The notes under the pieces were generated by a model. It was not told the origin of the DNA. It ran no database searches and was given only the letters and a program-made list of their open reading frames with translations. Positions 5,407 through 61,189 of a DNA stretch of 64,000 nucleotides are shown one piece after another (the stretch's first letter is position 1; each line of letters begins with the position of its first letter). The position numbers and the translations under genes were made by a program. The DNA lies in NCBI GenBank assembly GCA_015486075.1, contig WFSG01000032.1, forward strand, positions 106,862 through 170,861, written 5' to 3'. This DNA is from Deltaproteobacteria bacterium (lineage in GTDB: Bacteria > Desulfobacterota > Desulfomonilia > UBA1062).

Positions 5407-6933
5407 CTAATAATGATCAGTTCTGATACCCATAAGCCATGCACATGTGAAGTATATTAAGGCTCCACCAAGGATAGACGCGACTAGGAATGAAAGACTA
5501 GCAATGGTTAATCCCTTCTTCCAGAAATGGACATGCACAGCTGGTATTAGGCATATGAGCATAATTATTCCTGATATAGACATCTTTGCCAGTCTAATGT
5601 ATGAACTTGCCGAGATGACGACTCCTCTTCTGTGTAGGAGGTATTGAAGGATAGCAACCTGTATTACAACTGATAGAGATGTGGCAAGTGCCAGTCCAAC
5701 ATGCCCCATGTATGGCATCAGCGCGAGACTCAACACAAGGTTAATACCAAGGGTAATCCAAGCCACCTTGACCGCTGTACCCGCGTTTTGCATGGCATAA
5801 AACGCCTGGGTGAGTATTCTTGATATACCTATTGCCCACAGACCAAGGGCATACATCCTTAAGGCCTTTGCAGTAAGTAGGGCGTCGACCTGTTGGAATT
5901 CTCCCCTTACAAAGAGGAGTGATACTATGGGTTCGGCTAGGACAAAAAGTCCAATGGATGAAGGGACAGTGAAAAAAAGTATGGTGTCAGTTGCCTTTTC
6001 CACAAGGCTAGACATCTCCTTCATCTCAACCCTGGCAGATGCCTGGCTCATCACTGGGAGCATGACATTACCCACGGCAAAGGCAAATATACCGAGTGGC
6101 AGTTCTACTAACCTGTTAGCATAGTAAAGGTAGGACACGCTCCCACGAGGAAGGAAAGATGCAAGGATCGTCCCAGTAAGTACGTTTATCTGGTATACAG
6201 AGGCTCCTATAGCTGCTATACCCATGAGTTTTAGGACCTGCTTTACCCTATTGTCCATGAAATTAAAGGAGGGTCTTATGGGTACCTTGTGCGATCTTAA
6301 GGGGCCTAGTTGTAGTACTATTTGCATAAGTCCGCCCAAGAGCACTGACCATGCAAGTGCATCCGCAGCCGTTTTAAAGAAGGGTAAAAGTATATAGAAG
6401 AAGATAGGGATGCCTATCATGGAGATGTTCAGTAGTATTGGGGCTGCTGCCGGTGCAGCAAAGTGCCCAAGTGAGTTAAGTATACCCATGAATATAGCCA
6501 CGATGCTTACAAGTAGTATGTAAGGAAACATGATCCTGGTAAGGTGCAGGGCAACGTTGAATGTATTCGTGTTGACAAAACCCGGGGCTATGGCGGTTAC
6601 TATGGCAGGGCTTATTATCTCGCCGGTTATGACTATAAGTCCTAGGGTAATAACCATGAGTGTTAAGATCTTTCTGGACAGAAGAAAAGCCCTATCCATG
6701 CCTTCCTTCTCCATAGTCTCGTTGAATACGGGTACAAATGCTACGTTGGTTGCGCCTTCTGCGAGTAACCTTCGAAGGAGGTTCGGAATCCTGAAGGCCA
6801 CGAAGAATGCGTCTGCTATTGGTCCTGCACCTATAAGCCAGGCAATTACCGCGTCTCTTAAGAATCCTAGACCTCTGCTGAAGGCCGTAAGTGTTCCCAC
6901 CAGGGCTATGTTTTTATTGACCTTATGATTCAT
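5407..6933 (-). CDS. murJ: Lipid II flippase MurJ (MviN)
   Basis: SRGLGFLRD, ADAFFVAFRIPNLLRRLLAEG and YYANRLVELPLG motifs; polytopic membrane protein. Confidence 0.95.
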   Translation of the reverse strand: MNHKVNKNIALVGTLTAFSRGLGFLRDAVIAWLIGAGPIADAFFVAFRIPNLLRRLLAEGATNVAFVPVFNETMEKEGMDRAFLLSRKILTLMVITLGLIVITGEIISPAIVTAIAPGFVNTNTFNVALHLTRIMFPYILLVSIVAIFMGILNSLGHFAAPAAAPILLNISMIGIPIFFYILLPFFKTAADALAWSVLLGGLMQIVLQLGPLRSHKVPIRPSFNFMDNRVKQVLKLMGIAAIGASVYQINVLTGTILASFLPRGSVSYLYYANRLVELPLGIFAFAVGNVMLPVMSQASARVEMKEMSSLVEKATDTILFFTVPSSIGLFVLAEPIVSLLFVRGEFQQVDALLTAKALRMYALGLWAIGISRILTQAFYAMQNAGTAVKVAWITLGINLVLSLALMPYMGHVGLALATSLSVVIQVAILQYLLHRRGVVISASSYIRLAKMSISGIIMLICLIPAVHVHFWKKGLTIASLSFLVASILGGALIYFTCAWLMGIRTDHY

Positions 6934-6951
6934 GCATGTATGGTTCTATCT

Positions 6952-7665
6952 CTAGTTTATATTTCTCTGCACATGTGCATAGATGTGCACCACAACCTTT
7001 GAAGGATAATCTAAGTCCGTTTTGAAGACCGCTGCCCCGTAAATGAAGCCGTTCTTTACCAACTTTGGTTTGAATGTAAGCGTAAAGGTCTTTATACCAC
7101 CTGGAGAAAGTACAAAGGGTCCTACATGGTTCAATTCTATTTGCGTGAAGGGGGTGATTGTCATATTGGTTACTTGTATCGTTTTCTTGCCTTTGTTCAG
7201 AAGTGTTATTGTCTTTTTATATTCCTCACCTTCAAGGACCGTCCCAAAGTTGATATACTTAGGGTTTACAACCAGGGTCTCGATGACCTTCATGCTTATA
7301 CGTAGACTTATATCCTTTGCCGAGGGATCATTTGTGTGGACATGAATAACCTTTCTTAGAATTCCCTTTCTGTTCCTTGTTGAGACCTTAACCCTTATCC
7401 TTGTGTATTTCCCACTTGCTATTACATGCCCTCCCGGGACATCTATGGAGACTCCTCATGTATGTCCAATATCAAGGATGAGTGGTTTGTCACCTGTGTT
7501 CTTGATAGTAAACTCGTGAATTACGACCTTACCCTGGGGGATGATGCCTGCGTAGAAGTCTCTGTGATGGATGACGGCATGTGGAGCAGCAGACGCGATG
7601 GTAGCCAAAAATAGAAATAGAAGAGACAAGGTAAAGCATATTGTGTAACCTTTTCTGTAAACCAT
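6952..7665 (-). CDS. Exported DUF1573 (Ig-like) domain protein with in-frame UGA, probable selenoprotein (Sec70)
   Basis: Track ORFs 7456-7683 and 6952-7293 are in the same frame and separated only by TGA 7456-7458. Read-through gives HEFTIKNTGDKPLILDIGHT-U-GVSIDVPGGHVIASGKYTRIRVKVSTRNRKGILRKVIHVHTNDP, an intact DUF1573 pattern. There is a GGAGG SD and a signal peptide. Confidence 0.75.
7423..7445 (-). promoter_or_regulatory. Putative bacterial SECIS hairpin
   Basis: +11 to +33 after UGA: UAG-AUG(U)CCC-GGGA-GGGCAU-GUA. The stem has a bulged U at +17 and a G-first GGGA apical loop. Confidence 0.6.
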
Positions 7666-7933
7666 GCGAACACCTCCATACATAACATGGTATATCTGGA
7701 TTATTATGTATTCCGCGATTGTTTGTCAAAGTATTAAAATGTGTTGCTATTGAACAAAGGTCGTTTTGTTATTACTTGAAGGCTGGATTAAATGTTTTTT
7801 TATTTTTTTTATATCGAGAGTTTTATCCTTAACACGATTTGCCGTATAGTTCTTAAGATACACCCTGAAGCTAGGACAGACAATGGGAGGATATGGTTGA
7901 CTTTTCTTTGCCTAGATAATACTCTATGTCTCC

Positions 7934-9079
7934 ATGAGAGGTAAGCTTGAATATCCAAGCGGGCTGATAGAGCTGGTATCGGTAGAAGTGGAGATGATTG
8001 ATCCTGAATACAGGGAATTATGGCTCGGATATAACTACACTTGCCCGGGTGGTGAGTACAAGTCGACCATGGTAATACCCATTACTGATTCAGTTGGCAT
8101 GGCTCATCATTTCTTCGAAGAGCTGGTGGAAGAAGCTAGGCGTTTGTCAGAGATAGACGGAGGATATTCAGAAGGTCCGGGCTTTTTCCTTTCGAACAAG
8201 TCAGGTACGTTTTTCCTGATAAAGAATCTATGCCAGCAGGTAATAAATGTTCTCTCAATGGAGGGTCCATTGGAAGAAAATAGACTTTACATTGACCTAA
8301 GCACAACAGGTATACATTTCAAGGACCCAGCCAAGAGCCTAACTGGAATGGACTTTGATCAAAGGCTCAAGGTCTTTATGACAAGGGCAAAGGAAAAGAT
8401 ATCTCAGGGGTTTTATACTCTGGCTGCAGATGACCTTGAGAAGGCAAGGGCACTATGTTCTAACAGCCCGATAGTTTATAAGTTGCTTGGTATCTGTCAC
8501 AGGGAGCTAGGTCACCTAGATCTTGCCTTGGAGATGTTCTCAAAGGCCATGGACATAGATGACAGGGATAAGGACACGTTTCTTTACCTGGAAGAAACAG
8601 GATTTTTCCTGGATGACATGGAGTTTTGCGAGAATATACTGGAAGAGATGCTAAGCCTGTATCCTGATGATATAAGGGGGCTTGTAGAGCTCGCTAATGT
8701 AAGGTACCAGATGGGTAGGGATTACGTGGATATACTGGACAAGGCATTTTCTATTGATAGCAAGGAGACAAAAGAGGTTATCCTGCAGACCTTTGTCTTC
8801 AAGCGTTCCAAGAGCCATAACCCCGATCCAAAGTTGATTTCAGCTAGGGATGTCTCGACCATAATGGGTGTGTCCCTTGAGACTATCAAGGGCCTTGTGA
8901 AGTTGAACAGAATACCTTCAAGGGAGACAGAGGAAAGAAGTGGTTTTGTGTTTGATGAGGATGAGCTCAAGGCTTGGATTGACGTGTACACTAGATATGG
9001 GCTAATGGACAATGAGATCGAAAGAGCTACAGATAAATTCAACGGGAATTCAGATCAAGGCATGGCTCTTCTCACCTGA
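7934..9079 (+). CDS. TPR-repeat protein with C-terminal excisionase-like HTH
   Basis: TPR helices (VYKLLGICHRELGHLDLALEMFSKA). The C-terminal LISARDVSTIMGVSLETIKGLVKLNRIP...FVFDEDELKAWI resembles HTH_17. Confidence 0.65.
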   Translation: MRGKLEYPSGLIELVSVEVEMIDPEYRELWLGYNYTCPGGEYKSTMVIPITDSVGMAHHFFEELVEEARRLSEIDGGYSEGPGFFLSNKSGTFFLIKNLCQQVINVLSMEGPLEENRLYIDLSTTGIHFKDPAKSLTGMDFDQRLKVFMTRAKEKISQGFYTLAADDLEKARALCSNSPIVYKLLGICHRELGHLDLALEMFSKAMDIDDRDKDTFLYLEETGFFLDDMEFCENILEEMLSLYPDDIRGLVELANVRYQMGRDYVDILDKAFSIDSKETKEVILQTFVFKRSKSHNPDPKLISARDVSTIMGVSLETIKGLVKLNRIPSRETEERSGFVFDEDELKAWIDVYTRYGLMDNEIERATDKFNGNSDQGMALLT

Positions 9080-9773: not shown

Positions 9774-9807
9774 GTTGACAAGCAGGCTAGAATACACCCA
9801 CGAGAAT

Positions 9808-10452
9808 ATGTATTACCCGGTTTTCCTCGATCTCAGGGATAAACTCTGTGTCGTGATAGGTGGTGGAAGGGTGGCTCAAAGGAAGGTGGAATCACTGGTA
9901 AGTGCAGGGGCAAGGGTGAAGGTCATATCAGGTGATATACTTGATGAGATCAGCTCTATTGATGGGGTTATACTTGAGAAGAGGAAATACGAGGATGGTG
10001 ATCTTAAAGGGGCTTTTCTGGTTATAGCTGCTACCGATGATCCCGATGAAAACCTTAAGATAACTAGGGAAGCCAAGGCCAGAGGTATTCTTTTGAATGT
10101 TGTTGACAAGATAGAGCTATGCAACTTTATTATGCCTTCTGTAGTAGAAAAGGGGCCACTAAAGATCGCGATATCGACAGGTGGCTTTTCCCCTGCATTG
10201 GCAAGAAGACTACGCGTGAAGATTGGTAAATATATAGGAGAAGAGTTTGAAATCCTGGCAAGAATTCTGGCAAGGATAAGGCCCATTGTTGTTGGAATGG
10301 GTGGTGATGCTAACATGCACAAGCGTATATTCGAAGTACTTATAGATTCTTCCCTTCTAGATGCAATCCGTGAGGGTAATAGGGAGCAGGTAAATGATAT
10401 TATTTATCAGGCGCTGGGCATACAGATAGACATCGGGGACTTATTATTATGA
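9808..10452 (+). CDS. sirC: Precorrin-2 dehydrogenase / sirohydrochlorin ferrochelatase (CysG N-terminal, SirC/Met8-like)
   Basis: YYPVFLDL, VIGGGRVAQRK, NVVD..CNFIMP and AISTGGFSPALAR. Start placed at ATG 9808. Confidence 0.9.
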   Translation: MYYPVFLDLRDKLCVVIGGGRVAQRKVESLVSAGARVKVISGDILDEISSIDGVILEKRKYEDGDLKGAFLVIAATDDPDENLKITREAKARGILLNVVDKIELCNFIMPSVVEKGPLKIAISTGGFSPALARRLRVKIGKYIGEEFEILARILARIRPIVVGMGGDANMHKRIFEVLIDSSLLDAIREGNREQVNDIIYQALGIQIDIGDLLL

Positions 10453-11270
10453 GTATAATAACTATAACTAGTTTTCTATACATAGCCGCCTTAGCGGCGT
10501 TTGTAATTATGCTCCTAAGTAGAAAATCCCTGATTTTGCTCTTTGCTAGGGCCTTATTCCTGGCATCGGTAGCGTCTCACGGCATACTGATGTTGATACT
10601 TTCCATTAATCTGCACGAGGTACCTTTAAGTTCCGTTCCCCAGGCAATTAACATGATGATATTTATCTCTTCTTTGGCATTTATACCCATTGTATTGAGT
10701 AGAAAGACATACCTGTTGGGTGTTTTCTTCCTGCCGTTTGCATCTTTTGCACTACTATGGGTCTTGCCAGACATAGGCCTTTCAGCGCCTGCCACTTTCC
10801 GTTTCCACACTTATTGGTATCCGCTACATACCCTGAGCGTTATAACAGGGGAGGCTATGTTTGTGGTGGCAGCCGTAACATCTATAGTATACCTTGTTCA
10901 CGAACATATAATAAGAAAAGGGGATTTTCACTCATCGGTATCTTCATCCTTGCCTGCACTCACCCTGCTTGATAGGATCCTCTACATAAGCGTTTTAGTG
11001 GGGTTTCTGGCAATAACTTCTGGTATGATCATGGGTACACTCTGGGCACAGAGCAAGGGGCTGCACTTATCCAAGATAATGCCCAAGATAATAGCAGGGG
11101 GCATTGTATGGATCATATTTGCCGTATGTCTGCACCAGAGATTTGCCATTGGCTGGAAAGGAAGACGTACGGCAATAGTCACGCTCATAGGATTTAGCTT
11201 GATGATTGTATTACTCTTCTTAATTAACATGTTATTTCCACACGCGCATGGACTAGGTCTGTTGCTATGA
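10449..11270 (+). CDS. ccsA: Cytochrome c assembly / HemX-like membrane protein (CcsA family)
   Basis: About 8 TM segments, WYPLH, LPALTLLD, GMIMGTLWA and GWKGRR; typical position upstream of hemA. Confidence 0.8.
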   Translation: MSIITITSFLYIAALAAFVIMLLSRKSLILLFARALFLASVASHGILMLILSINLHEVPLSSVPQAINMMIFISSLAFIPIVLSRKTYLLGVFFLPFASFALLWVLPDIGLSAPATFRFHTYWYPLHTLSVITGEAMFVVAAVTSIVYLVHEHIIRKGDFHSSVSSSLPALTLLDRILYISVLVGFLAITSGMIMGTLWAQSKGLHLSKIMPKIIAGGIVWIIFAVCLHQRFAIGWKGRRTAIVTLIGFSLMIVLLFLINMLFPHAHGLGLLL

Positions 11271-12574
11271 TAAGGATAGAGTGCATCAGCATAAATTACA
11301 GGCATGTGCCTGTAGACATACTGGAAAGGGTAAGGATACCTCCAGAGGCGGTTGTACCCATGTTACCCCCGGGTTCAGAGGCATATACCTTGAACACGTG
11401 CAACCGTGCCGAGATATACTGGACAGGCATGGAAAAGCAGGGTGTCTTTAACATGGTTTCCGGACTTATAGGAGTAGCACCAGGCTACCTTGACCGTATA
11501 TCAGTGCATTTGAGAGGAGAAGACAGTGTTAGGCATCTTTTCAGGGTAGCGTCTGGCCTAGATTCTATGGTTCTTGGCGAACCCCAGATACTGGGCCAAG
11601 TGAAAGATGCTTACAAGGCTGCCCTAGATGAGCACATGGTTTCTATTATATTTAATAAGCTTCTTCACAGGGCCTTCAGGACAGCAAAGCGTATCAGAAC
11701 AGAGACAGCCATAGGCAAGTTTCCTGTTTCCGTTGCATCTGAGGCAGTGGAATTGGCATGCCACGTGTTTGATGAGATCCAGGGAAGTCAGGTTCTTGTA
11801 ATAGGCGCGGGAGAAATGGCCACGATAGCTGCAAAGAGGCTTAAGGACAGAGGGGTATCAAGGATATCTATCCTCAACCGTACCTTTGGACGCGCAAAGG
11901 AGTTGGCAGTAGAGCTGGGCGGTATGGCGCTGAGTTTCAGTGAGCTGCACGAGGCGGTGAGGACGAGTGACATTATAATCACCTCCACGGGTTCTCAGGA
12001 GCCTATAATAACAAAGGACATGATGAGCGAGATAATGAAAGAGAGACATTATAGCCCTGTAGTAATGATAGATATTGCCCTACCTAGGGATGTGGAACCC
12101 GATGTGAGTAAAGTGTACAACTGTTATCTTTATGACCTTGATTCACTGAAAAAGGTTGTTTCAGTAAACTTTACACAAAGGGAAAATGAGATTGAAAAGG
12201 CCGAAGAGATTATAGAATATGAAGTAGGAGTTTTCAGTAGGTGGTTAAAGGGGCTTAATGCTCATGGTACCATAAGGGATCTGTATAACCTGATGGAATA
12301 CTACATATCAGAGCAATTGGAGGAAAAGGCTGCTTTGGTAGGAGAAAAGGAGAAGGCTATTCTAGAAGATGCTCTCAGGTCAATGGCTAAAAGGCTTTTT
12401 AACAGGCCTGTCTCCTTTATGAAGAGATATCCCAAGCTAGACTATATAGAACATACAAGGAGGATATTCCGTCTGGATGAAGACTATCAGGATAGGCACA
12501 AGAGGCAGCAAGCTGGCACTAGCGCAGGTAGAGATAGTAATAAGCTTGATGAGAAATATAGAGGAAAATCTTGA
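11267..12574 (+). CDS. hemA: Glutamyl-tRNA reductase
   Basis: TCNRAE, HLFRVASGLDSMVLGEPQILGQVK, VIGAGEM and DIALPRD. Confidence 0.95.
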   Translation: MIRIECISINYRHVPVDILERVRIPPEAVVPMLPPGSEAYTLNTCNRAEIYWTGMEKQGVFNMVSGLIGVAPGYLDRISVHLRGEDSVRHLFRVASGLDSMVLGEPQILGQVKDAYKAALDEHMVSIIFNKLLHRAFRTAKRIRTETAIGKFPVSVASEAVELACHVFDEIQGSQVLVIGAGEMATIAAKRLKDRGVSRISILNRTFGRAKELAVELGGMALSFSELHEAVRTSDIIITSTGSQEPIITKDMMSEIMKERHYSPVVMIDIALPRDVEPDVSKVYNCYLYDLDSLKKVVSVNFTQRENEIEKAEEIIEYEVGVFSRWLKGLNAHGTIRDLYNLMEYYISEQLEEKAALVGEKEKAILEDALRSMAKRLFNRPVSFMKRYPKLDYIEHTRRIFRLDEDYQDRHKRQQAGTSAGRDSNKLDEKYRGKS

Positions 12575-13361
12575 TGTCGAGGTACGCAAGATACATACTA
12601 CCGGAGACAGGCTTGTCAATGTATCCCTTGACGAAATAGGTGGTAAGGGCCTTTTTGTAAAGGATATTGAGGAGCAATTGCTTGAAGGTGATATAGATAT
12701 TGCAGTGCACAGCCTGAAGGATATGCCAGCAGACCTTCATGAGGGTCTTTATCTAAGTGCGTTTGTTAAGAGGGACGATCCCAGGGATATGCTTTTTACA
12801 AATGGCAGTTACACACTTTATTCTTTACCCAAGGATTCTGATTTAGGCACATCTAGCTTGAGGAGAAAGTACCAGGTAAAGTCGGTAAGGCCTGACGTGA
12901 ATATCGTTAATATCAGGGGTAATGTAACTACCAGGTTAGACAAGATCGGTAAGAGTGTAGATGGTGTGATACTGGCTGCTGCAGGCATAAAACGCCTAGG
13001 ATTAAGGGCCGGTGTACCACTGGACATCAGGACCATAATTCCGGCTCCTGGACAGGGTGTAATAGCCTTGGAGACAAGGAAAGATGACAAAGATATAATA
13101 AATTTTACAAAGAACCTTGACCACGGTGCAACGAGGTTATGTGTTGAGACAGAAAGGGCATTTCTCAAGACCCTGGGTGCTGACTGCAACTTTCCAGTTG
13201 CCGCACATGCCCTTCTTGAACATGCTGATATCATTCTGCACGGCATGCTTGGGGACATGAACAGACCATACCTGATGGTACGGAAAACAGTAAGGGGTAA
13301 AGATACGTCTATAGGTAGTATTCTTGCTGAGGAACTTGTTGAAGAACTGGAGAGAAATTGA
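12477..13361 (+). CDS. hemC: Hydroxymethylbilane synthase
   Basis: IGTRGSKLALAQ, GGKGLFVK, AVHSLKD, GTSSLRR, IRGNVTTR and LGADC. Confidence 0.95.
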   Translation: MKTIRIGTRGSKLALAQVEIVISLMRNIEENLDVEVRKIHTTGDRLVNVSLDEIGGKGLFVKDIEEQLLEGDIDIAVHSLKDMPADLHEGLYLSAFVKRDDPRDMLFTNGSYTLYSLPKDSDLGTSSLRRKYQVKSVRPDVNIVNIRGNVTTRLDKIGKSVDGVILAAAGIKRLGLRAGVPLDIRTIIPAPGQGVIALETRKDDKDIINFTKNLDHGATRLCVETERAFLKTLGADCNFPVAAHALLEHADIILHGMLGDMNRPYLMVRKTVRGKDTSIGSILAEELVEELERN

Positions 13362-14848
13362 ACAGGACAAAGGTATACCTCGTTGGCACAGGACCTGGGG
13401 ACCCTGAACTCCTTACCCTGAAGGCAGAAAGGGTTATCAGGACTGCGGACGTTCTTGTGTACGACGACCTAATACCTCCCGAGGTTATGGGCCTTGTTGG
13501 AAAGCACGCTCTGACCATATATGTGGGCAAGAGGGCTGGCAAGCACAAGATGGGACAGGAGGAAATAAACGGTCTTATGGTAAAACTGGCCCTGGAAGGA
13601 AAGACCGTGGCAAGGCTTAAGGGCGGGGACCCTTGCATATTTGGAAGGTGCGGGGAAGAAGCAACTTATCTGAAGGAACATGGTGTAGATTTCGAGATCA
13701 TTCCAGGTATAAGTTCAGCAACAGCAGGACCAGTCTCGGCAGGTATACCACCTACCCACAGGCAACTGTCTTCGTCTCTCAGGATAGTTACTGCACACGA
13801 AGATCCCACGAAGAAAGATAGCCTCTTGGACTGGGAGAATTTGGCCCGGGATAAGGGCACAATTATATTTCTCATGGGTGCATCCCGCATAGGTGCCATT
13901 GCAAAGAGGCTCATTAAAGAGGGCATGGACGGGGATAGACCATGTGCTCTTATACAGGATGCAACCACGGGTTCCCAGAGGCATGTTTTATCTACCCTGG
14001 AAAAAGTAGCTGAGGATGCAGCTTTGGCAGGTATTGCTTCCCCATGTATAATGCTGGTCGGTAACGTGGCAGTTCTTGCACGAGATCTCTTCAGACCAGC
14101 CAAGCTTCCCCTTGAGGGAAGGTCTGTGCTTATAACTAGGCCCGTTCATCTCGCCTGGGAGTCTGCCCTTCTATTCTCTTCCCGCGGTGCCAAAGCATAC
14201 GTATACCCGCTCATAGAGATCTCTAAGCTCGATTTTGATATACCTAGGATAGACTCCTATGACATGTTTATTTTTACATCCCAAAACGCTGTTACTATTT
14301 TCATGGAAAGACTTTTCAGTGCTGGCCTGGATGCTAGGGTATTTGGAGGCAGGGAGATTGTGGCCATAGGACCAGGCACCACGGGCGCCCTGAATAAATA
14401 CGGCATTAGGGTTGATACTATAGCTGGGACATATACTGCAGAAGGGATAGTGGATGCCATTGGCATGAAAGACCTTAAGGGTCGATTTATATGCATTCCA
14501 AGGGCAAAGGGCGCAAGGCCTTATTTGGTTAAGGCCTTGGAGGGTATGGGTGCATATGTGAGAGAGATCTTGGTATACGAAAGCAGGATGCCGGCTAATG
14601 CATGTAAGGAAAGTTTCTACCGCGTGCTCTCTAAAGTGGAATCGGTTATATTCACTAGCCCTTCGGGTGCAAGTAATGCTTTTAAGCTTCTTGGAAAGGA
14701 TACAATACACATTCTTGCCTCGAAGACAGTTATTGCTATTGGACCTGTAACAGCCAATTTTCTTAAGGCCTCGGGCCTTGAGCCGGACTTGTCAGCAACT
14801 ATACATACAGATATGGGTATTATTGAAGCCATGAAAGGAGCAGCATAG
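13358..14848 (+). CDS. cobA: Uroporphyrinogen-III C-methyltransferase / synthase fusion (CobA-HemD)
   Basis: VYLVGTGPGDPELLT and RLKGGDP, followed by a HemD domain (FTSQNAV, AIGPGT, FTSPSG). Confidence 0.92.
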   Translation: MNRTKVYLVGTGPGDPELLTLKAERVIRTADVLVYDDLIPPEVMGLVGKHALTIYVGKRAGKHKMGQEEINGLMVKLALEGKTVARLKGGDPCIFGRCGEEATYLKEHGVDFEIIPGISSATAGPVSAGIPPTHRQLSSSLRIVTAHEDPTKKDSLLDWENLARDKGTIIFLMGASRIGAIAKRLIKEGMDGDRPCALIQDATTGSQRHVLSTLEKVAEDAALAGIASPCIMLVGNVAVLARDLFRPAKLPLEGRSVLITRPVHLAWESALLFSSRGAKAYVYPLIEISKLDFDIPRIDSYDMFIFTSQNAVTIFMERLFSAGLDARVFGGREIVAIGPGTTGALNKYGIRVDTIAGTYTAEGIVDAIGMKDLKGRFICIPRAKGARPYLVKALEGMGAYVREILVYESRMPANACKESFYRVLSKVESVIFTSPSGASNAFKLLGKDTIHILASKTVIAIGPVTANFLKASGLEPDLSATIHTDMGIIEAMKGAA

Positions 14849-16026
14849 TGATAGGCATATCAAAACTTTATTGCGGAACAGTGGAGGCATCAGACCCCAT
14901 AAGGTATGGGAGGCGTTCGAGGGCCCTCCCCGCGCACCTTTTACAGTTCTCCGAGGATAAGAAGCCTGTTATAGTCTGGAATATAACTAGCAGGTGTAAC
15001 CTCAAGTGTATTCATTGTTATGCCTCTGCAGGTGGAGGTCAGACTAAGGAACTAACCACGGAACAGGGGCTTGGTCTTATTTCGCAGCTAAAGGATTATG
15101 GCGTACCTGTTATACTTTTCTCTGGGGGAGAGCCCTTTATGAGACAGGACTTGGTACAGCTTGTGAGGTCAGCTGCAAATAGTGGTATAAGGGCAGTTAT
15201 ATCAAGTAATGGGACCCTGATAACAAGGGATATGGCAAACAGACTTGCCGACGTTGGCCTATCTTACATAGGTGTGAGCCTGGACGGGATGGAGGGAGTT
15301 AATGACAAGTTTAGGGGAGTGCAAGGTGCATTCAAGAAGGCGATGAAGGGTATGCAGAATGCCATGGCAAGCGGCATAAAGGTAGGCTTAAGGTTCACGA
15401 TGAACAAGAGGAATTATACTGAAATCCCGGCTATATTTGACCTCATGGAAGCAGAGGGTATACAGAGAATTTGCTTTTATCACTTGGTTTATACGGGACG
15501 GGCGCGAGATTTAATGGCAGAGGACCTTACGCATGAAGAAACGAGGAAGACCCTTGATCTTATAATGGAGAGGACAAGAGAGATGATAGAGAAAAAAGGC
15601 ATTGATGTTGAGGTCTTGACCGTTGATAATCATGCCGATGGTCCCTACCTATATCTTCGCATGTTAGAGGAGGGTAATAAAAGAGCACCTGATGTGTTGG
15701 ACTTGTTAAAGATGAATGGCGGTAATTCAAGCGGCCTGGGTATAGGATGCATAAACTGGGATGGAGATGTGTATCCTGATCAGTTTTGGCGTAACCACAA
15801 GTTGGGGAATATTCTGGAGAAAGAGTTCAGCGAAATATGGGAAGACAGGTCTAATGAGTTTCTAATGAAGCTCAAGAACAAGAAGCTTCATATTAAGGGT
15901 AAATGCCAGAGATGCAAATGGCTTGATGTATGTGCTGGTAATTTCCGTGCAAGGGCAGAGGCGGCGACAGGTGATCCATGGGGGGAAGATCCCGCCTGTT
16001 ACCTGACGGAAGAGGAGATTAGTTAA
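14848..16026 (+). CDS. ahbC: 12,18-didecarboxysiroheme deacetylase, radical SAM (alternative heme pathway)
   Basis: MIGISKLYCG, LLQFSEDKKPVIVWN, CNLKCIHC, VLTVDNHADG and SPASM cysteines. Confidence 0.92.
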   Translation: MIGISKLYCGTVEASDPIRYGRRSRALPAHLLQFSEDKKPVIVWNITSRCNLKCIHCYASAGGGQTKELTTEQGLGLISQLKDYGVPVILFSGGEPFMRQDLVQLVRSAANSGIRAVISSNGTLITRDMANRLADVGLSYIGVSLDGMEGVNDKFRGVQGAFKKAMKGMQNAMASGIKVGLRFTMNKRNYTEIPAIFDLMEAEGIQRICFYHLVYTGRARDLMAEDLTHEETRKTLDLIMERTREMIEKKGIDVEVLTVDNHADGPYLYLRMLEEGNKRAPDVLDLLKMNGGNSSGLGIGCINWDGDVYPDQFWRNHKLGNILEKEFSEIWEDRSNEFLMKLKNKKLHIKGKCQRCKWLDVCAGNFRARAEAATGDPWGEDPACYLTEEEIS

Positions 16027-33399: not shown

Positions 33400-34362
33400 T
33401 CAATACGCATGGCAGGCTACAAGATGTCCATCTTCCTTTTCCTCAAGGCGTGGCCTTGATTGGGAGCATATGTCCATTGCCATGTCACACCTCGGCAGAT
33501 AGCTACAGCCTGTCCCACTGTATGCTAAGTAGTCCTTTTTGCTTGTGCAATTTATCCTTTTTTCTCGCTGGCCCACGCGTGGTATTGATGCAAGCAGGCA
33601 GCGGGTATATGGGTGCATAGGCGTGTTAATGATGGTATCTGTTGGTCCCAGCTCAACGATTTTCCCCATGTACATTACAGCTATCCTATCTGATACGTAG
33701 TTTACCACGGATATATCGTGTGAGATGAATAGGTAAGAAAGTTTGAGCTTTTGTTGTAGTCCCACAAGAAGGTTTAAGACCTGTGCCTGTATGGAGACGT
33801 CAAGGGAGCTGACCGGTTCATCGCATATAAGCAACCTAGGTTCAAGTGCAAGTGCCCTTGCAATCCCTATCCTCTGCCTTTGTCCACCTGAGAATTCATG
33901 AGGATACCTGTTGGCCACGTCCAAGGGTAGTCCTACCAGTCCTAGCAGCTCTAGTGCTCTTTTCCTGATTTCTTTGCGGGATGCCACGGCATGTACTATA
34001 AGTGGTTCTTCAATAATGGATATAACCTTCTTTCTGGGACTCAATGAACCGAATGGGTCCTGGAATATAACCTGCATTCCCCTGCGCACATGTCTTATGG
34101 CTATCTTGTCCATGTCGGGCCTAAGTTCATAGCCATCAAACATCACCCTGCCGTAGTCTGGTCTTTCCAGCATCAGCAGGAGCCTTGCTAATGTTGACTT
34201 CCCGCATCCCGATTCTCCAACAAGGCCAAGCGTTTCATTTGGGTATATCTCGAGGTCAACTTTATCTACTGCCGTTATCCTACCAACTGATCTGTTCGTA
34301 AGGCCAGTCTTTATATGGTAATCCTTGTGGATGCCTTTAACTGTTAGTATAGGTTCCCTCAT
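33400..34362 (-). CDS. oppF: Oligopeptide/dipeptide ABC transporter ATP-binding protein (OppF-like)
   Basis: GESGCGKST, YPHEFSGGQRQR, DEPVSSLD, HPYT and a C-terminal Cys cluster. Confidence 0.88.
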   Translation of the reverse strand: MREPILTVKGIHKDYHIKTGLTNRSVGRITAVDKVDLEIYPNETLGLVGESGCGKSTLARLLLMLERPDYGRVMFDGYELRPDMDKIAIRHVRRGMQVIFQDPFGSLSPRKKVISIIEEPLIVHAVASRKEIRKRALELLGLVGLPLDVANRYPHEFSGGQRQRIGIARALALEPRLLICDEPVSSLDVSIQAQVLNLLVGLQQKLKLSYLFISHDISVVNYVSDRIAVMYMGKIVELGPTDTIINTPMHPYTRCLLASIPRVGQREKRINCTSKKDYLAYSGTGCSYLPRCDMAMDICSQSRPRLEEKEDGHLVACHAY

Positions 34363-35372
34363 ACATGCCTCCAGCACCTTACCATGTGGGAACCCTCCAG
34401 TAAGGTAGCAGGTGGTTCTTTCTCAGAGCATATGCTCATTGCAACCTCGCACCTATCGTGGAATGGACATCCTTTGGGTACATCTCTAAATGTTGGTACT
34501 GTACCTGGTATGGGTTTGAGCCTGTACGACTTGGCCGTTTTCCCAAGTACTGGCCTTGAACGCATAAGACCAATTGTATAAGGATGTAGTGGGTTAGAAA
34601 ATAATGTGTCAACCTTGGATGACTCTACCACCTTTCCCATATACATAACCGATACGTCCTGGCAGGTCTCGGCAACAACACCGAGGTCATGGGTTACAAG
34701 TATTATGGATGTGTTGATTTCATCCTTTAACCCTTCCATAAGTTCTAGTATCTGTGCCTGGCTGGTTACATCAAGGGCAGTGGTTGGCTCATCGGCTATC
34801 ATTAACTTTGGCTTGCAGGCGAGAGCCATCCCAATCATGACCCTCTGGCGCATACCACCGCTCAGCTGGTGGGGATAGTCCTTTATGCGTTTTTCCGGCT
34901 GTGGTATACCTACCATTGCCAGGACTTCTATGGCTTTCTGGAGTGCAAAGGATCTTGAGCCTCTGAGTTCCCTTTGATGTAAGGCTATAGTTTCAGCTAC
35001 CTGTTCACCAATGGTGAATACAGGATTTAGTGATGTCATTGGCTCTTGGAATATCATAGAAATCTCGGCGCCTCTTATCTCACGCATGGATTCTTCATCA
35101 AGGCCGACTATATCTTTACCTTCAAACCATATATGTCCTCCCACTATCCTTCCGGGCCTAGGAACCAAGCGCATTATGGAAAGTGCCAGCATGGTTTTCC
35201 CGCACCCTGATTCGCCTACTATGCCGGTGGTAACAGACCGTTTAAGACTTATATTCACCCCGTCCAGGGCCCTTACTATCCTTTCGCGGGTAAAAAAATA
35301 CGTACGTAGATTCTCTATGTGAAGAATTACGTCATCTGTTTTTATTTGCGCGTTAGGCAGTTGCATTAACAT
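34359..35372 (-). CDS. oppD: Oligopeptide/dipeptide ABC transporter ATP-binding protein (OppD-like)
   Basis: [39 protein letters not shown] and HPYT. Confidence 0.88.
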
Positions 35373-35483
35373 GGGTTTTATACGAAAAGCCTGTTGTACA
35401 CAAGGGATAACCTGCTGGAAGATTCTCAGTACAGATGCATCTTTGTGTACTTTGCCAGATGTTACATATCTATCAGATTTCTG

Positions 35484-37688
35484 TCACAAAGGGGCCTCTT
35501 GCAATAGCCTTTGTTTAAGCGATGTATACCTCTCATTTGGCTTTGCATTGTTTACAGCCATGGCTATTGCTTTGAAGTTGCCTACTATAACAACCAACCG
35601 TTTGCCCCTTGTAATAGCAGTGTAGAGTAAGTTTCTCTTCAACATTATATAATGCTGGGTATGAAGCACAATCACAACCGCTGGAAACTCGTTTCCCTGA
35701 GACTTGTGAACAGAACAAGCATAGGCGAGGGACAACTCGTCTAGATTATGAAGATTATAACATACCTGTCTGTTGTAAAAATCCACCTTCACCTCAGCAT
35801 CGTTTTTCAGCTGCCTAATCGAGGATATCCTTCCTATGTCACCGTTAAAGACGCCCAGTTCGTAGTTGTTTTTCAACTGCATGACCTTGTCTCCGGGTGC
35901 AAACCTTTGACCTGACCTATTAATGCCCTTTCTTGAAGGGTTCAGGATTGCCTGTAGATGTTCATTGAGGCTGGAAACGCCCACAAGGCCTCTGTGCATA
36001 GGTGCCATTACCTGTATATCTTCTATAGGGTCAAGTCCGAATCTCTCTGGTATCCTTGATGCAACAAACTCCTTAACGGTCTCAAGTATATCTTCGGGGC
36101 TCTCCCTTCTGATAAAGAAAAAGTCGCCTTTGCCTTGCCTTGGCTTGAGGTAGGGGATCTCTCCCCTGTTAACCTTATGTGCGTTTACAACTATGAGGCT
36201 CTTTCTTGCCTGTCGGAAGATCCTATCTAACTTTACAGTCTTAATCTTTCCCGATGCTATCAAGTCTTCGAGCACTTTTCCTGGTCCTACCGATGGGAGT
36301 TGGTCCGCGTCTCCAACAAGTACAAGGCGAGCATGGTTAGGCAATGCCTTGAGCACGTTGTAAAAAAGCACTATGTCTACCATGGAGAATTCGTCTATGA
36401 TCAACATGTCTACCTTTAAAGGCCTTTTCTGGTTCCTGTCAAATTGCATCTCGTTTGGATTGAACTCTAGCATGCGGTGAATTGTCCTAGCGTTCCTGCC
36501 TGTTGCCTCGCCAAGCCTCTTTGCTGCTCTACCAGTTGGTGCGCATAATTGGATCCTTATTCCTTTCTTTTCCAGTATTTCTATTATGGCACGTATCAAG
36601 GTTGTCTTGCCTGTCCCAGGTCCCCCGGTTATGATTATAATCTTGTCCTTTATTGCAGATGACACGGCATTCCTTTGCTCGCCTGCCAGAGTTATACCAT
36701 GCCTTGACTCAAACCACGCAATTGCCCTGTTAATATCTACGGGTATGGGGGTGATGGAGGTCTTCATAATGGTACTGAGCCTGGCTATAACGCCTGACTC
36801 TGATGCATAGATAGAAGGCAGATATACTGTCTTTGACTCGCCTGTGTTCTCCAAGAACACGAGGGATCCCATGCTTAATTCCTTGATTGCATCCTCAATA
36901 ATGTCCCTTTCAATATCGAGATCATGACTTGTGGTATCGACGAGGCCCTCGTAGGGGAAGTAGACATGCCCCTTGTCTGACAGTTGTCCCAGCACGTACA
37001 GTACTCCGGCTTTTGCCCTTTTATGAGACTGAGGGGAGATCCCTATTGAAGATGCAATCCTATCGGCTGTCTTGAAACCTATCCCGTGTATATCCATTGC
37101 TAGCCTATAGGGGTCATCGTGTAATATACCTATGGTGTCTTTGCCGTAGGCCTTGTAAATCCTTGGCGCATAAGCACTCGAGACGCCGTAGGATTGTAGA
37201 AGTATCATGACCTCCCTAATATCTTTTTGCTTTTTCCATGCATCAACGATTCTTCCGGCCCTTACTGGGCCTATCCCATCCACCTGTGTAAGCCTTTCTG
37301 GATGATTCTCAATCATATCAAGCACGGCCTCTCCAAATGTTCCCACGAGCCTTTTTGCCATCTCCCTGCCAATACCTCGTATCATGCCCGAGGACAGGTA
37401 TTTCTCTATGCCTTCTGTTGTTGCTGGCCTTAGGCTTGAGAAACTTGAGACCTGAAACTGTGGCCCATATACAGGGTTATGTACCCATTTACCTTTTAGT
37501 TTCAAGTGTTCACCCGGCTGTATTCCGGCCAGGTTACCAACTGCCGTTATCTTCCTACCTTTTGATATGATCCTTATTACGCTCCAGCCATTTGAGCTGT
37601 TGAAGTATACTATATGGTCTAGGGTTCCTTCGACTTCACGGTAGTCATGGTCTTCCTTTAACATATGCATCCTGTACCTGCCCCTCAC
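35484..37688 (-). CDS. recD2: ATP-dependent RecD2-like DNA helicase (start may be ATG 37670/37664)
   Basis: HhH repeats, GIGFKTAD, TGGPGTGKTT, IIDEFSM, GDADQLPSV, HKSQG and YTAITRG. Confidence 0.93.
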   Translation of the reverse strand: MRGRYRMHMLKEDHDYREVEGTLDHIVYFNSSNGWSVIRIISKGRKITAVGNLAGIQPGEHLKLKGKWVHNPVYGPQFQVSSFSSLRPATTEGIEKYLSSGMIRGIGREMAKRLVGTFGEAVLDMIENHPERLTQVDGIGPVRAGRIVDAWKKQKDIREVMILLQSYGVSSAYAPRIYKAYGKDTIGILHDDPYRLAMDIHGIGFKTADRIASSIGISPQSHKRAKAGVLYVLGQLSDKGHVYFPYEGLVDTTSHDLDIERDIIEDAIKELSMGSLVFLENTGESKTVYLPSIYASESGVIARLSTIMKTSITPIPVDINRAIAWFESRHGITLAGEQRNAVSSAIKDKIIIITGGPGTGKTTLIRAIIEILEKKGIRIQLCAPTGRAAKRLGEATGRNARTIHRMLEFNPNEMQFDRNQKRPLKVDMLIIDEFSMVDIVLFYNVLKALPNHARLVLVGDADQLPSVGPGKVLEDLIASGKIKTVKLDRIFRQARKSLIVVNAHKVNRGEIPYLKPRQGKGDFFFIRRESPEDILETVKEFVASRIPERFGLDPIEDIQVMAPMHRGLVGVSSLNEHLQAILNPSRKGINRSGQRFAPGDKVMQLKNNYELGVFNGDIGRISSIRQLKNDAEVKVDFYNRQVCYNLHNLDELSLAYACSVHKSQGNEFPAVVIVLHTQHYIMLKRNLLYTAITRGKRLVVIVGNFKAIAMAVNNAKPNERYTSLKQRLLQEAPL

Positions 37689-37771
37689 TAAGAGGCTAAA
37701 ATAACCCTTGTAATTGAATCCGAATGGCGTGTGAACTCTACTGAAAGTTGTTTTCCTTATTAATCAGGCTA

Positions 37772-59254: not shown

Positions 59255-61189
59255 ATGGGCAAGATTCTGGGCATAGATCTCGGGACAACAAATTCATGCA
59301 TGGCAATAATGGAGGCTGGAGAGGCCAAGGTGATACCAAATGCCGAGGGAGCAAGGACTACTCCTTCTGTGGTAGCATTCACAAGCTCGGGTGAAAGGCT
59401 GGTCGGACAGGTTGCAAGGCGACAGGCAATTACCAATTCTGAGAATACCCTTTATGCAATAAAGAGACTCATAGGTAGAAAGTTCGATGACCAAGAGGTT
59501 CAACGTGACATAAAGGTGATGCCTTTCAAGATAGTGAGGGCTGATAACGGAGACGCGGCCGTTGAAGTCGAGGGCCGCAAGTATTCACCACCTGAGATCT
59601 CTGCGATGGTGCTCCAGAAGCTTAAGAAAGATGCAGAGGCGTATTTGGGCGAGAAGATAGAGGATGCAGTAATAACTGTGCCTGCGTACTTCAACGACTC
59701 GCAGAGACAGGCTACAAAGGATGCGGGAAGGATAGCAGGACTTAATGTAAAGAGAATCATAAACGAGCCCACTGCCGCTGCACTTGCATATGGACTGGAC
59801 AAGAAAAAGGATGAAAAGATAGCAGTATTTGACTTTGGTGGAGGAACATTTGATATTTCCATACTGGAGCTAGGTGACGGGGTGTTTGAGGTCAGGTCCA
59901 CGAATGGTGACACACACTTGGGTGGAGAGGATATAGATAATCGCATAATAGATTACCTTGTAAAGGAGTTCAAAAAAGAGACAGGAGTGGACCTGAGCCA
60001 GGATAGAATGGCATTGCAAAGACTAAAGGAGGCAGCCGAAAGGGCAAAACACGAGCTCTCTACCATGATGGAGACCGAGATTAACCTGCCTTTTATCACA
60101 GCAGATGCATCTGGGCCAAAGCATTTGAATATGAAACTGACCAGGGCAAAGTTAGAGGCACTTGTAGAGGATATAATTCAGAAACTGGAAGATCCGTGCA
60201 GGAAGGCGCTTGCGGATGCAGGCCTTTCACCTAGTGATATTGACGAGGTTATACTGGTTGGTGGACAGACAAGGATGCCCTTGGTGCAGGAGAAGGTGAA
60301 ATCCATCTTTGGTAAGGACCCCCATAAGGGCGTGAATCCTGACGAGGTGGTCGCTGTTGGAGCGGCCATCCAGGGTGGAGTCCTTGCCGGGGATGTGAAG
60401 GATGTGTTGCTGCTTGATGTAACGCCACTCTCACTCGGGATAGAGACCCTTGGAGGTGTTTTCACAAAGATCATAGAGAGAAACACGACCATACCAACCA
60501 GGAAATCCCAGATATTCTCCACGGCAGAGGATAACCAGAGTGCTGTAACCATAAGAGTCTTCCAGGGAGAGAGGCCTATGGCCCAGGATAACAAGCTCCT
60601 TGGCCAGTTTGACCTCGTGGGTATACCACCTGCACCGAGGGGTGTACCCCAGATTGAAGTCACCTTTGACATAGATGCAAACGGTATCATGCACGTATCT
60701 GCAAAGGACAAGGCCACTGGCAAGGAGCAGTCAATAAAGATTACGAGTTCATCCGGTCTGAACGAGCAGGATATACAAAAGATGATAAGGGAAGCCGAGG
60801 AACATGCAGAGGAAGACAGGAAAAAACAGGCCCTCATAGAGGCCAGAAACAAGGCTGACAATCTGGTTTATACCACGGAGAAGACACTCAAGGAATATGG
60901 TGAAAAGGTGGATGCCCAGACAAGGTCCAATATAGAGAGCGCACTATCAGATCTTAAGGACGCCATGAAGGGTGAAGACGTGGACCTCATGAACAGGAGA
61001 ATGGATGCACTTACCACGGCTTCACACAAGTTGGCTGAGGCCATGTATGCTGAAGCGGCTTCTAAGGCAGGTCAATCTGCAGGGGCTTCTTCTCAGGCCT
61101 CGGATGCATCGTCTAGTGCATCCTCCTCAGCAAAGGATGAAAACGTGGTTGATGCAGAATTTGAAGAGGTAAAAGGGGACAAGGGTTAA
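59255..61189 (+). CDS. dnaK: Chaperone DnaK
   Basis: [24 protein letters not shown] and VVDAEFEEV. Confidence 0.98.

Follow-up and report, generated by a model that had tools for sequence, protein, structure and literature searches.

A DUF1573 gene beside murJ in a Desulfomonilia genome very probably encodes an exported selenoprotein

The stretch of DNA analyzed here, referred to at its full length of 64,000 nucleotides as the window, comes from a Deltaproteobacteria bacterium (Desulfobacterota; Desulfomonilia; UBA1062; GenBank assembly GCA_015486075.1, contig WFSG01000032.1, positions 106,862 to 170,861 of the forward strand). Directly upstream of the lipid II flippase gene murJ, it carries a gene of the DUF1573 family whose reading frame contains a single TGA codon. 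Comparison with related genomes makes it very probable that this TGA encodes selenocysteine (Sec, U), and that the locus is an intact gene for a 237-residue exported selenoprotein, paired with murJ. The discovery itself is incremental, since the wider DUF1573 family is already a listed selenoprotein family; the clade to which the window gene belongs is not a new kind of system, but it presents a new motif, a new clade outside the family model NF041425, and a new conserved genomic context.

The gene and its product

Under translation table 11, the locus reads as two open reading frames (ORFs) in one frame of the minus strand, 7456..7683 (75 residues) and 6952..7293 (113 residues), with 54 codons between them. 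The in-frame TGA lies at 7456-7458 (TCA in plus-strand letters) and, when it is read as Sec, leaves the frame open from 7683 or 7665 to the TAG at 6952-6954. The selenoprotein gene (6952..7665, minus strand), as delimited by this read-through, by Pfam matches, and by homologous gene models, runs from ATG 7665 to TAG 6952 in 237 codons plus the stop, with the one TGA. An earlier reading made from the letters of the window alone (hereafter the sequence-only reading) had joined the same two ORFs into a protein of 237 residues, and this is borne out. The gene is the only DUF1573 copy in its genome, which comprises 2.3 Mb in 49 contigs with a completeness of 100. A Shine–Dalgarno sequence, GGAGGTG (7671-7677, minus strand), stands five nucleotides before ATG 7665, and a GGAGG-type motif also precedes the aligned ATG in the homologous models; this layout recurs in all 30 of the 30 models built, which span 225-244 residues and have a hydrophobic N-terminus without exception. 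ATG 7665 is therefore taken as the true start, and the G-G seen upstream in the read-through of every homologue corresponds to the Shine–Dalgarno sequence.

The first 26 residues (7588..7665, minus strand) form a putative signal peptide with a basic n-region, a hydrophobic core, and A-S-A followed by A-P. It appears to be of the signal peptidase I type, without a lipobox, and homologues keep A-x-A and then (A/T)-P-(K/R) at the signal-peptide end; the protein would thus be exported to the periplasm. Two Ig-like domains follow, which, together with the signal peptide, agrees with the sequence-only reading of an exported DUF1573 protein with two Ig-like repeats. The first (7282..7578, minus strand) is of the DUF1573 or HYDIN/VesB type: Pfam DUF1573 (PF07610) scores 59.3 bits over residues 41-130 against a gathering cut-off of 26.1, a match reached only with the TGA read through, and the HYDIN/VesB Ig-like family scores 64 bits across the TGA. 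The second (6967..7275, minus strand) is of the ASH or choice-of-anchor D type, with ASH/Cep192-type Ig matches in Pfam and agreement from structural modeling and from structure and profile searches. An AlphaFold2 (AF2) model, computed from 22 aligned clade rows and with Sec replaced by Cys, has a predicted local distance difference test score (pLDDT) of 93.9 and a predicted template modeling score (pTM) of 0.75, and shows an N-terminal helix at residues 2-23, corresponding to the signal peptide, and beta-sandwich domains at 30-128 and 131-233. The Sec position, residue 70, sits in a loop of the first domain between strands 62-66 and 72-75. Neither Foldseek against the Protein Data Bank (PDB) nor a profile search of the PDB gave a functional lead; their matches were confined to generic ASH/HYDIN/PapD-like Ig domains and to 2qsv, a Porphyromonas gingivalis protein of uncharacterised function.

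Evidence that the TGA encodes selenocysteine

The Sec machinery, on whose presence the sequence-only reading had made its proposal hinge, is found in the window's own genome with every component above its curated cut-off: selA (530.9 bits, cut-off 267.9), selB (363.1 bits, cut-off 242.25), selD (349.7 bits, cut-off 125), and tRNA-Sec (77 bits, gathering score 47). Within the window itself, ARAGORN finds no tRNA. As a separate observation, the genome's own selD (C41:95950-96858, outside the window) has one in-frame TGA, so that selenophosphate synthetase is itself a selenoprotein here.

The TGA (7456..7458, minus strand; residue 70, motif H-T-U-G-V) recurs across the window's own family of the class Desulfomonilia (f1). 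A search of related genomes with stop codons read through gave a match in 40 of 41, and the best match contains exactly one TGA in 23 of the 24 matching f1 genomes. When 122 genomes of the class were searched with a profile, 50 of the 51 other f1 genomes matched, 48 of them with TGA forms by count of the matches listed; the exceptions are a Cys form (G021), a weak match outside those listed (G121), and one genome without a match (G008). The same search matched 65 of 70 genomes of the sister family (f2), and none of the matches listed there is a TGA form. In an alignment of 51 sequences, including 20 extra paralogues, the TGA occupies one single column in all 32 Sec forms of the clade (32 genes from 24 genomes), and that column holds Cys both in a C-C-G-V form (L045) and in S/T-C-G-C forms. 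Homologues with TGA or Cys at this position, as the sequence-only reading had anticipated, do therefore exist; the alignment also agrees with its placement of the TGA at the first Cys of the C-G-C motif, with T-U-G-V in the window and no second Cys.

Selection points the same way on both sides of the codon. Between the window gene and that of a genus mate (71% identical), the ratio of nonsynonymous to synonymous substitution rates (dN/dS) is 0.188 for the mature part up to the TGA and 0.117 for the part beyond, and the latter value indicates that the part 3′ of the TGA is translated in frame. If this were instead a dead DUF1573 gene whose TGA had arisen by nonsense mutation or by a base-calling error, the locus would be expected to look much as gene callers now treat it, for public protein sets hold only post-TGA fragments of this clade. 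A word-indexed search of public proteins with the window protein gave one match of 171 residues, and a clade-profile search gave ten matches at E ≤ 1e-40, all of 144-171 residues and either unnamed or called "hypothetical protein"; among four such fragments read, three start two or three codons 3′ of the TGA, and P0159 starts further downstream. The base call itself recurs in a 16.4-kb Logan contig assembled from run X1 at depth 18.8, which shows no difference to the window over 6800-7800. As X1, the only run found to contain the stretch, is probably the source sample, this agreement is not independent and shows only that a second assembler concurs. We nevertheless regard a pseudogene or an assembly or sequencing error as extremely improbable, given that the TGA recurs in one alignment column in 32 genes of 24 genomes and in 48 of 51 other family genomes, that frameshifts are absent, that dN/dS downstream is low, and that the contig is identical. 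Reading the TGA as Sec would put right an annotation error that recurs over a whole bacterial family, in whose public protein sets the gene is split or shortened.

It could also be supposed that the TGA is a true stop, yielding a 69-residue exported fragment and a separate C-terminal protein from a downstream start. Table 11 does yield two ORFs, and the genome commonly uses TGA as a stop, as in 14 of the 38 window ORFs of at least 250 residues. This seems to us very unlikely, however: the first in-frame ATG after the TGA comes 54 codons on, in the middle of the first domain and without a Shine–Dalgarno sequence, and the 54 intervening codons are conserved, including T-N-D-P. Moreover, the TGA falls inside both the DUF1573 domain and the confidently predicted AF2 fold, and the hairpin described below tracks it.

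A hairpin downstream of the UGA codon

A hairpin resembling a selenocysteine insertion sequence (SECIS) lies at +17 to +33 from the U of the UGA (7426..7442, minus strand), overlapping codons D-V-P-G-G-H, with six base pairs (A-U, U-A, G-C, U.G, C-G, C-G) and a CGGGA loop. It fits the rules for bacterial SECIS elements, which call for a stem-loop with an apical-loop G shortly 3′ of the UGA. One survey likewise stresses conserved loop guanosines for SECIS (PMC1976440). The sequence-only reading had described a hairpin here with a bulged U at +17 and a GGGA loop, and had likened it to the bulged U17 of Escherichia coli fdhF. The hairpin exists, but the bulged U and GGGA loop belong to only one of two registers, and at the position of that U (here +20) 25 of 32 homologues carry a C that pairs with G. 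Because this position is not a conserved bulge, the analogy with fdhF U17 fails; for the window hairpin, the better reading is an uninterrupted stem of six pairs, one of them the U.G wobble, under a CGGGA loop.

The hairpin alone folds at −8.4 kcal/mol (z −1.84), and its equivalents in two relatives at −10.6 and −9.6 kcal/mol. In an ungapped alignment of the 32 Sec forms, the six pairs are formed in 87.5% of cells versus 78.5 ± 1.7% in column shuffles, of which 0 of 500 reach the observed value, while slid registers of the hairpin are 29-56% paired. The inner four pairs are formed in 128 of 128 cells, and four of the six pairs show double-sided changes (17 cells). The pairing also follows the presence of Sec: the 32 Sec forms keep a mean of 5.25 of 6 pairs versus 2.67 of 6 in six non-Sec clade members, and Cys-form S/T-C-G-C proteins keep 1.75 of 6. 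The non-Sec L045 retains the A-P-G-G residues with 2 of 6 pairs only.

Several observations weigh against the selenoprotein reading or against the hairpin as its signal. The stability of the hairpin is modest, as 10 of 200 shuffles fold equally well; the 81 nucleotides around the TGA are no more stable than shuffles (z +0.69); and an Rfam scan of the window returned no family at gathering score. The two outer pairs are broken in 13 and 11 of the 32 sequences, and two of the six pairs are invariant in a stem that overlaps conserved A/V-P-G-G codons, so that part of its conservation is protein-level. No RNA run is listed among the sequencing runs that contain this stretch, the AF2 model rests on Cys at residue 70, and it is uncommon for redox selenoproteins to have a lone Sec with no resolving Cys. 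Even so, the machinery, the conservation of the TGA, purifying selection, and the covarying hairpin together support the claim of the sequence-only reading that Sec is inserted into an exported DUF1573 protein.

Family placement and remodeling of the motif

The sequence-only reading had left it in doubt whether this family was catalogued, and this is now settled: the wider DUF1573 family is catalogued as a selenoprotein family, OS_HP2, represented by the NCBIfam model NF041425 ("OS_HP2 family (seleno)protein", cut-off 100 bits). In the tables of two reviews (PMC9312934 and PMC13188914), "DUF1573 domain-containing protein" (PF07610, motif UGC) is a listed selenoprotein family, and both credit Zhang & Gladyshev 2007 for it; Table 2 of that paper (PMC1976440) gives OS_HP2 as two selenoproteins with no Cys homologue. 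The window protein, however, scores 63.4 bits against NF041425, and the nine clade members tested, the window included, score 46-92 bits, all under the cut-off, whereas four U-G-C-T paralogues of sister genomes reach 116-136 bits and one Cys form 107.5 bits. Neither the U-G-C motif of the review tables nor the C-G-C label of DUF1573 describes the window's T-U-G-V, in which only the first position of C-G-C is kept, as Sec. In a maximum-likelihood (ML) tree of 46 rows, from which five fragments of fewer than 200 residues had been dropped, the window's clade (36 rows) stands apart from the U-G-C/C-G-C group (10 rows) with support of 99/98.

Within the clade, 28 of the 32 Sec forms have the motif x-C-U-G-V/A. 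H-T-U-G-V occurs in the window and its genus mate, both on a long branch of 0.99, and P-S-U-G-V in two sequences of one other genome (G024), so that the Cys at −1 was lost twice independently. Sec was itself lost three times by the alignment and tree, giving C-C-G-V, D-C-G-C-G-G, and S-C-x-S-C-N-G. The last two of these forms suggest that the site may tolerate several two-chalcogen geometries. The clade thereby shows the remodeling of a selenoprotein active-site motif, from C-G-C or U-G-C to C-U-G-V and on to T-U-G-V with a lone Sec.

Other paralogues in these genomes are recorded here in their own right. L065-L069 (G009, G017, G020) are non-Sec clade members with S-C-E/D-S-C-N-G and D-C-G-C-G-G replacing C-U-G. 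L059, L060, L061, L063, and L064 (G005, G020, G015, G018, and G011) are U-G-C-T OS_HP2 paralogues that coexist with the C-U-G-V clade and have a different downstream hairpin, CUGCUUC...GAAGCAG. At L029 (G003:C96), two tandem C-U-G-V paralogues lie away from murJ, between enoyl-CoA hydratase and TetR regulator genes.

Searches over 122 genomes of the class and a sample of 401 from the phylum have so far placed the clade in one family of Desulfomonilia (Desulfobacterota) only. In the phylum sample, the clade profile at E ≤ 1e-35 matched 17 genomes, namely the window's own, five of six f1 genomes (all TGA), and 11 others; the six of these 11 that were read all have classical x-[C/U]-G-C-T forms with murJ not nearby. 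A profile search of 1.84 billion representatives gave no usable orthologues, the top 150 being without exception giant Ig-repeat proteins of 870-7,635 residues, and a related-locus search among genome contigs matched neither the window protein nor MurJ. A literature search found no paper on the C-U-G-V variant or on a selenoprotein–murJ link, none on the function of DUF1573, and none pairing Desulfomonilia with selenocysteine; PMC13188914 has no mention of CUG, Ig-like, signal peptide, or periplasmic.

Pairing with murJ

murJ (5407..6933, minus strand; PF03023, 413.6 bits) lies 18 nucleotides 3′ of the selenoprotein gene, the gap given correctly by the sequence-only reading, and no promoter- or terminator-like site falls within it. 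Among the best-match loci of f1 genomes (L022-L045), murJ is directly downstream on the same strand in 22 of 24. In G017 the murJ-linked copy is a second one (L055), which brings the total to 23 of 24 genomes; in the remaining genome, G003, one copy stops at a contig end. Measured to the murJ start codon at 21 loci, the intergenic distance ranges from −4 to 174 nucleotides around a median of 35, with at most 44 nucleotides in 15 loci and 138-174 in five. This conserved adjacency supports the co-transcription that had been proposed from the single locus, and the selenoprotein gene is probably the first of a two-gene unit with murJ. The Cys form L045 occupies the same place before murJ, which identifies it as an orthologue that lost Sec. 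G008 (an f1 genome, completeness 96) has neither the selenoprotein gene nor a MurJ match at E ≤ 1e-30, so that the region there is probably unassembled. The pairing offers a first conserved gene-context clue for this branch of a family of unknown function.

Whether the two products work together is a different question. Gene order could simply have been inherited, with no functional coupling and with the protein acting on something unrelated to lipid II flipping, and we take this to be a serious possibility that falls short of probable. A functional link rests on gene order within one bacterial family, as all murJ-linked copies come from f1. Further, the divergent upstream gene (7934..9079, plus strand; 381 residues, with a weak TPR match and no other Pfam family) is a conserved neighbor too, with homologues at 19 loci (426-858 bits, own locus included), so that part of the murJ synteny may be plain inheritance. 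Both points weigh against coupling, and inheritance would also accommodate paralogues that keep the Sec motif away from murJ (L029, L030) and the gaps of 138-174 nucleotides. Against inheritance alone, the pair persists over 14 genera in which MurJ is only 53-70% identical, the gaps are mostly short, and the pairing is kept where an AAA ATPase has replaced the upstream neighbor (L024-L027). The sister family, moreover, lacks the clade, and there a DUF1573-like ORF lies within 1.5 kb of murJ at 0 of 4 murJ loci, and murJ within 1.5 kb of DUF1573 at 0 of 6 DUF1573 loci. The 15 classical C-G-C/U-G-C loci read show no recurrent partner and no copper genes, their neighbors including TPR, TatA, zinc-ribbon, Rieske/cytochrome b, and S41 peptidase genes.

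Possible function of the selenoprotein

The sequence evidence is compatible with the following course of events. The UGA at codon 70 would be decoded as Sec by SelB and tRNA-Sec, steered by the short hairpin with its G-rich loop 13 nucleotides after the codon, and the Sec-type signal peptide would then carry the protein to the periplasm. Sec would there occupy a loop position in the first (DUF1573) domain that corresponds to the leading Cys of the family motif C-G-C, its selenol would be the working group of a periplasmic site, and the protein's task may be tied to MurJ and cell-envelope assembly.

Such a site could plausibly be a redox site, in which the selenol and the adjoining Cys, or in the window the selenol and the thiol of a partner, form a selenenylsulfide, although we hold this view tentatively; the probability left over by this reading and by the metal-ligand alternative below falls to another role or a purely structural one. 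Sec/Cys pairs reportedly mark reactive Cys residues in most cases, and the vicinal Cys-Sec of the C-terminal G-C-U-G in animal thioredoxin reductase can form a selenenylsulfide ring. By this analogy, for most clade members the vicinal C-U-G favors a redox switch based on a selenenylsulfide. The window protein has zero Cys in its mature part, the sole Cys of the protein lying in the signal peptide; its lone Sec, with a His gained at −2, would have to use an external thiol or serve as a metal ligand.

The metal-ligand alternative, in which Sec, together with the His at −2 or with the Cys at −1 of relatives, binds a soft metal such as Cu(I) in a periplasmic chaperone or scavenger, is possible, if somewhat doubtful. 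C-x-C and vicinal chalcogen pairs bind Cu(I), and the window's genus has swapped P-C-U for H-T-U, gaining His as Cys was lost. Predicted metal-site selenoproteins (UxxC in HMA-type proteins) appear in the tables of PMC9312934. Nevertheless, about 8 kb of the window to each side of the gene contain no copper, other metal, or redox-partner genes, an absence that weighs against the redox site as well, and no metal genes stand beside the classical forms read.

A more specific proposal, which we consider unlikely, is that the clade represents a selenium-dependent periplasmic accessory of MurJ, in which the Sec loop docks on or near MurJ and the selenol acts on MurJ or its lipid-linked cargo; such chemistry may consist, for example, of redox gating or protection from thiol-reactive metals. 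If this were true, cell-wall precursor export in these bacteria would be partly selenium-dependent, and, more generally, a functional murJ link would tie selenium to cell-envelope assembly.

Other features of the window

A promoter-like site, TTGACA-18 nt-AATAAT (7700..7729, minus strand), lies about 35 nucleotides 5′ of the start codon with 11 of 12 consensus matches, and is offered as a lead only, as promoter-like sites in the region occur at chance level (6 found versus 6.4 expected). The divergent 381-residue gene could be a regulator of the gene pair. Beyond it, 9775-16026 (plus strand) holds tetrapyrrole genes, with Pfam families for a sirohaem-synthase-type NAD-binding protein, a cytochrome c assembly-type membrane protein, GlutR (HemA), porphobilinogen deaminase, a TP_methylase/HemD fusion, and a radical SAM/SPASM enzyme; this gene run resembles the sirohaem-dependent haem route of sulfate reducers.

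Two other frames joined by a TGA in the window were checked, and neither is a Sec candidate. The first (34359-37763, minus strand) consists of a RecD2-type helicase ORF and an oligopeptide ABC ATPase ORF in the same frame with one TGA (35484-35486) between them, two ordinary genes by their domains, and the second (59953-60867) matches no Pfam family.

Comparison with known systems

The E. coli fdhF SECIS resembles the clade's element in being a coding-region hairpin that follows the UGA closely and has guanosines in its apical loop. It differs in that the clade has no conserved bulged U at +20, a stem of 4-7 base pairs only, and no Rfam match. With the G-C-U-G of thioredoxin reductase, 28 of 32 clade members share a vicinal Cys-Sec-Gly; the clade's motif, however, belongs to an internal loop in a periplasmic protein of the Ig-like type rather than to the flexible C-terminal tail of a flavoenzyme, and the window protein, with Thr at −1 and a mature part devoid of Cys, lacks the vicinal Cys-Sec altogether.

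Closer relatives are found among DUF1573 proteins themselves. The Cys-form S/T-C-G-C proteins (for example those of f2, Desulfomonilaceae-type) share the length, signal peptide, and two-domain layout of the clade and keep the H-(D/E)-F...N-x-G-D and (S/T)-N-D-P motifs, but they have neither Sec nor the hairpin and do not adjoin murJ. From OS_HP2 (NF041425), the clade is set apart by its C-U-G-V/A or T-U-G-V motif, in which the Cys at +2 is lost, by a different SECIS hairpin, by its separate position in the tree, and by a murJ linkage absent from the classical forms read. At the same time, the two have in common the PF07610 domain, Sec at the first Cys of C-G-C, a signal peptide, two Ig-like domains, and their occurrence in the selenoprotein-rich Desulfobacterota.

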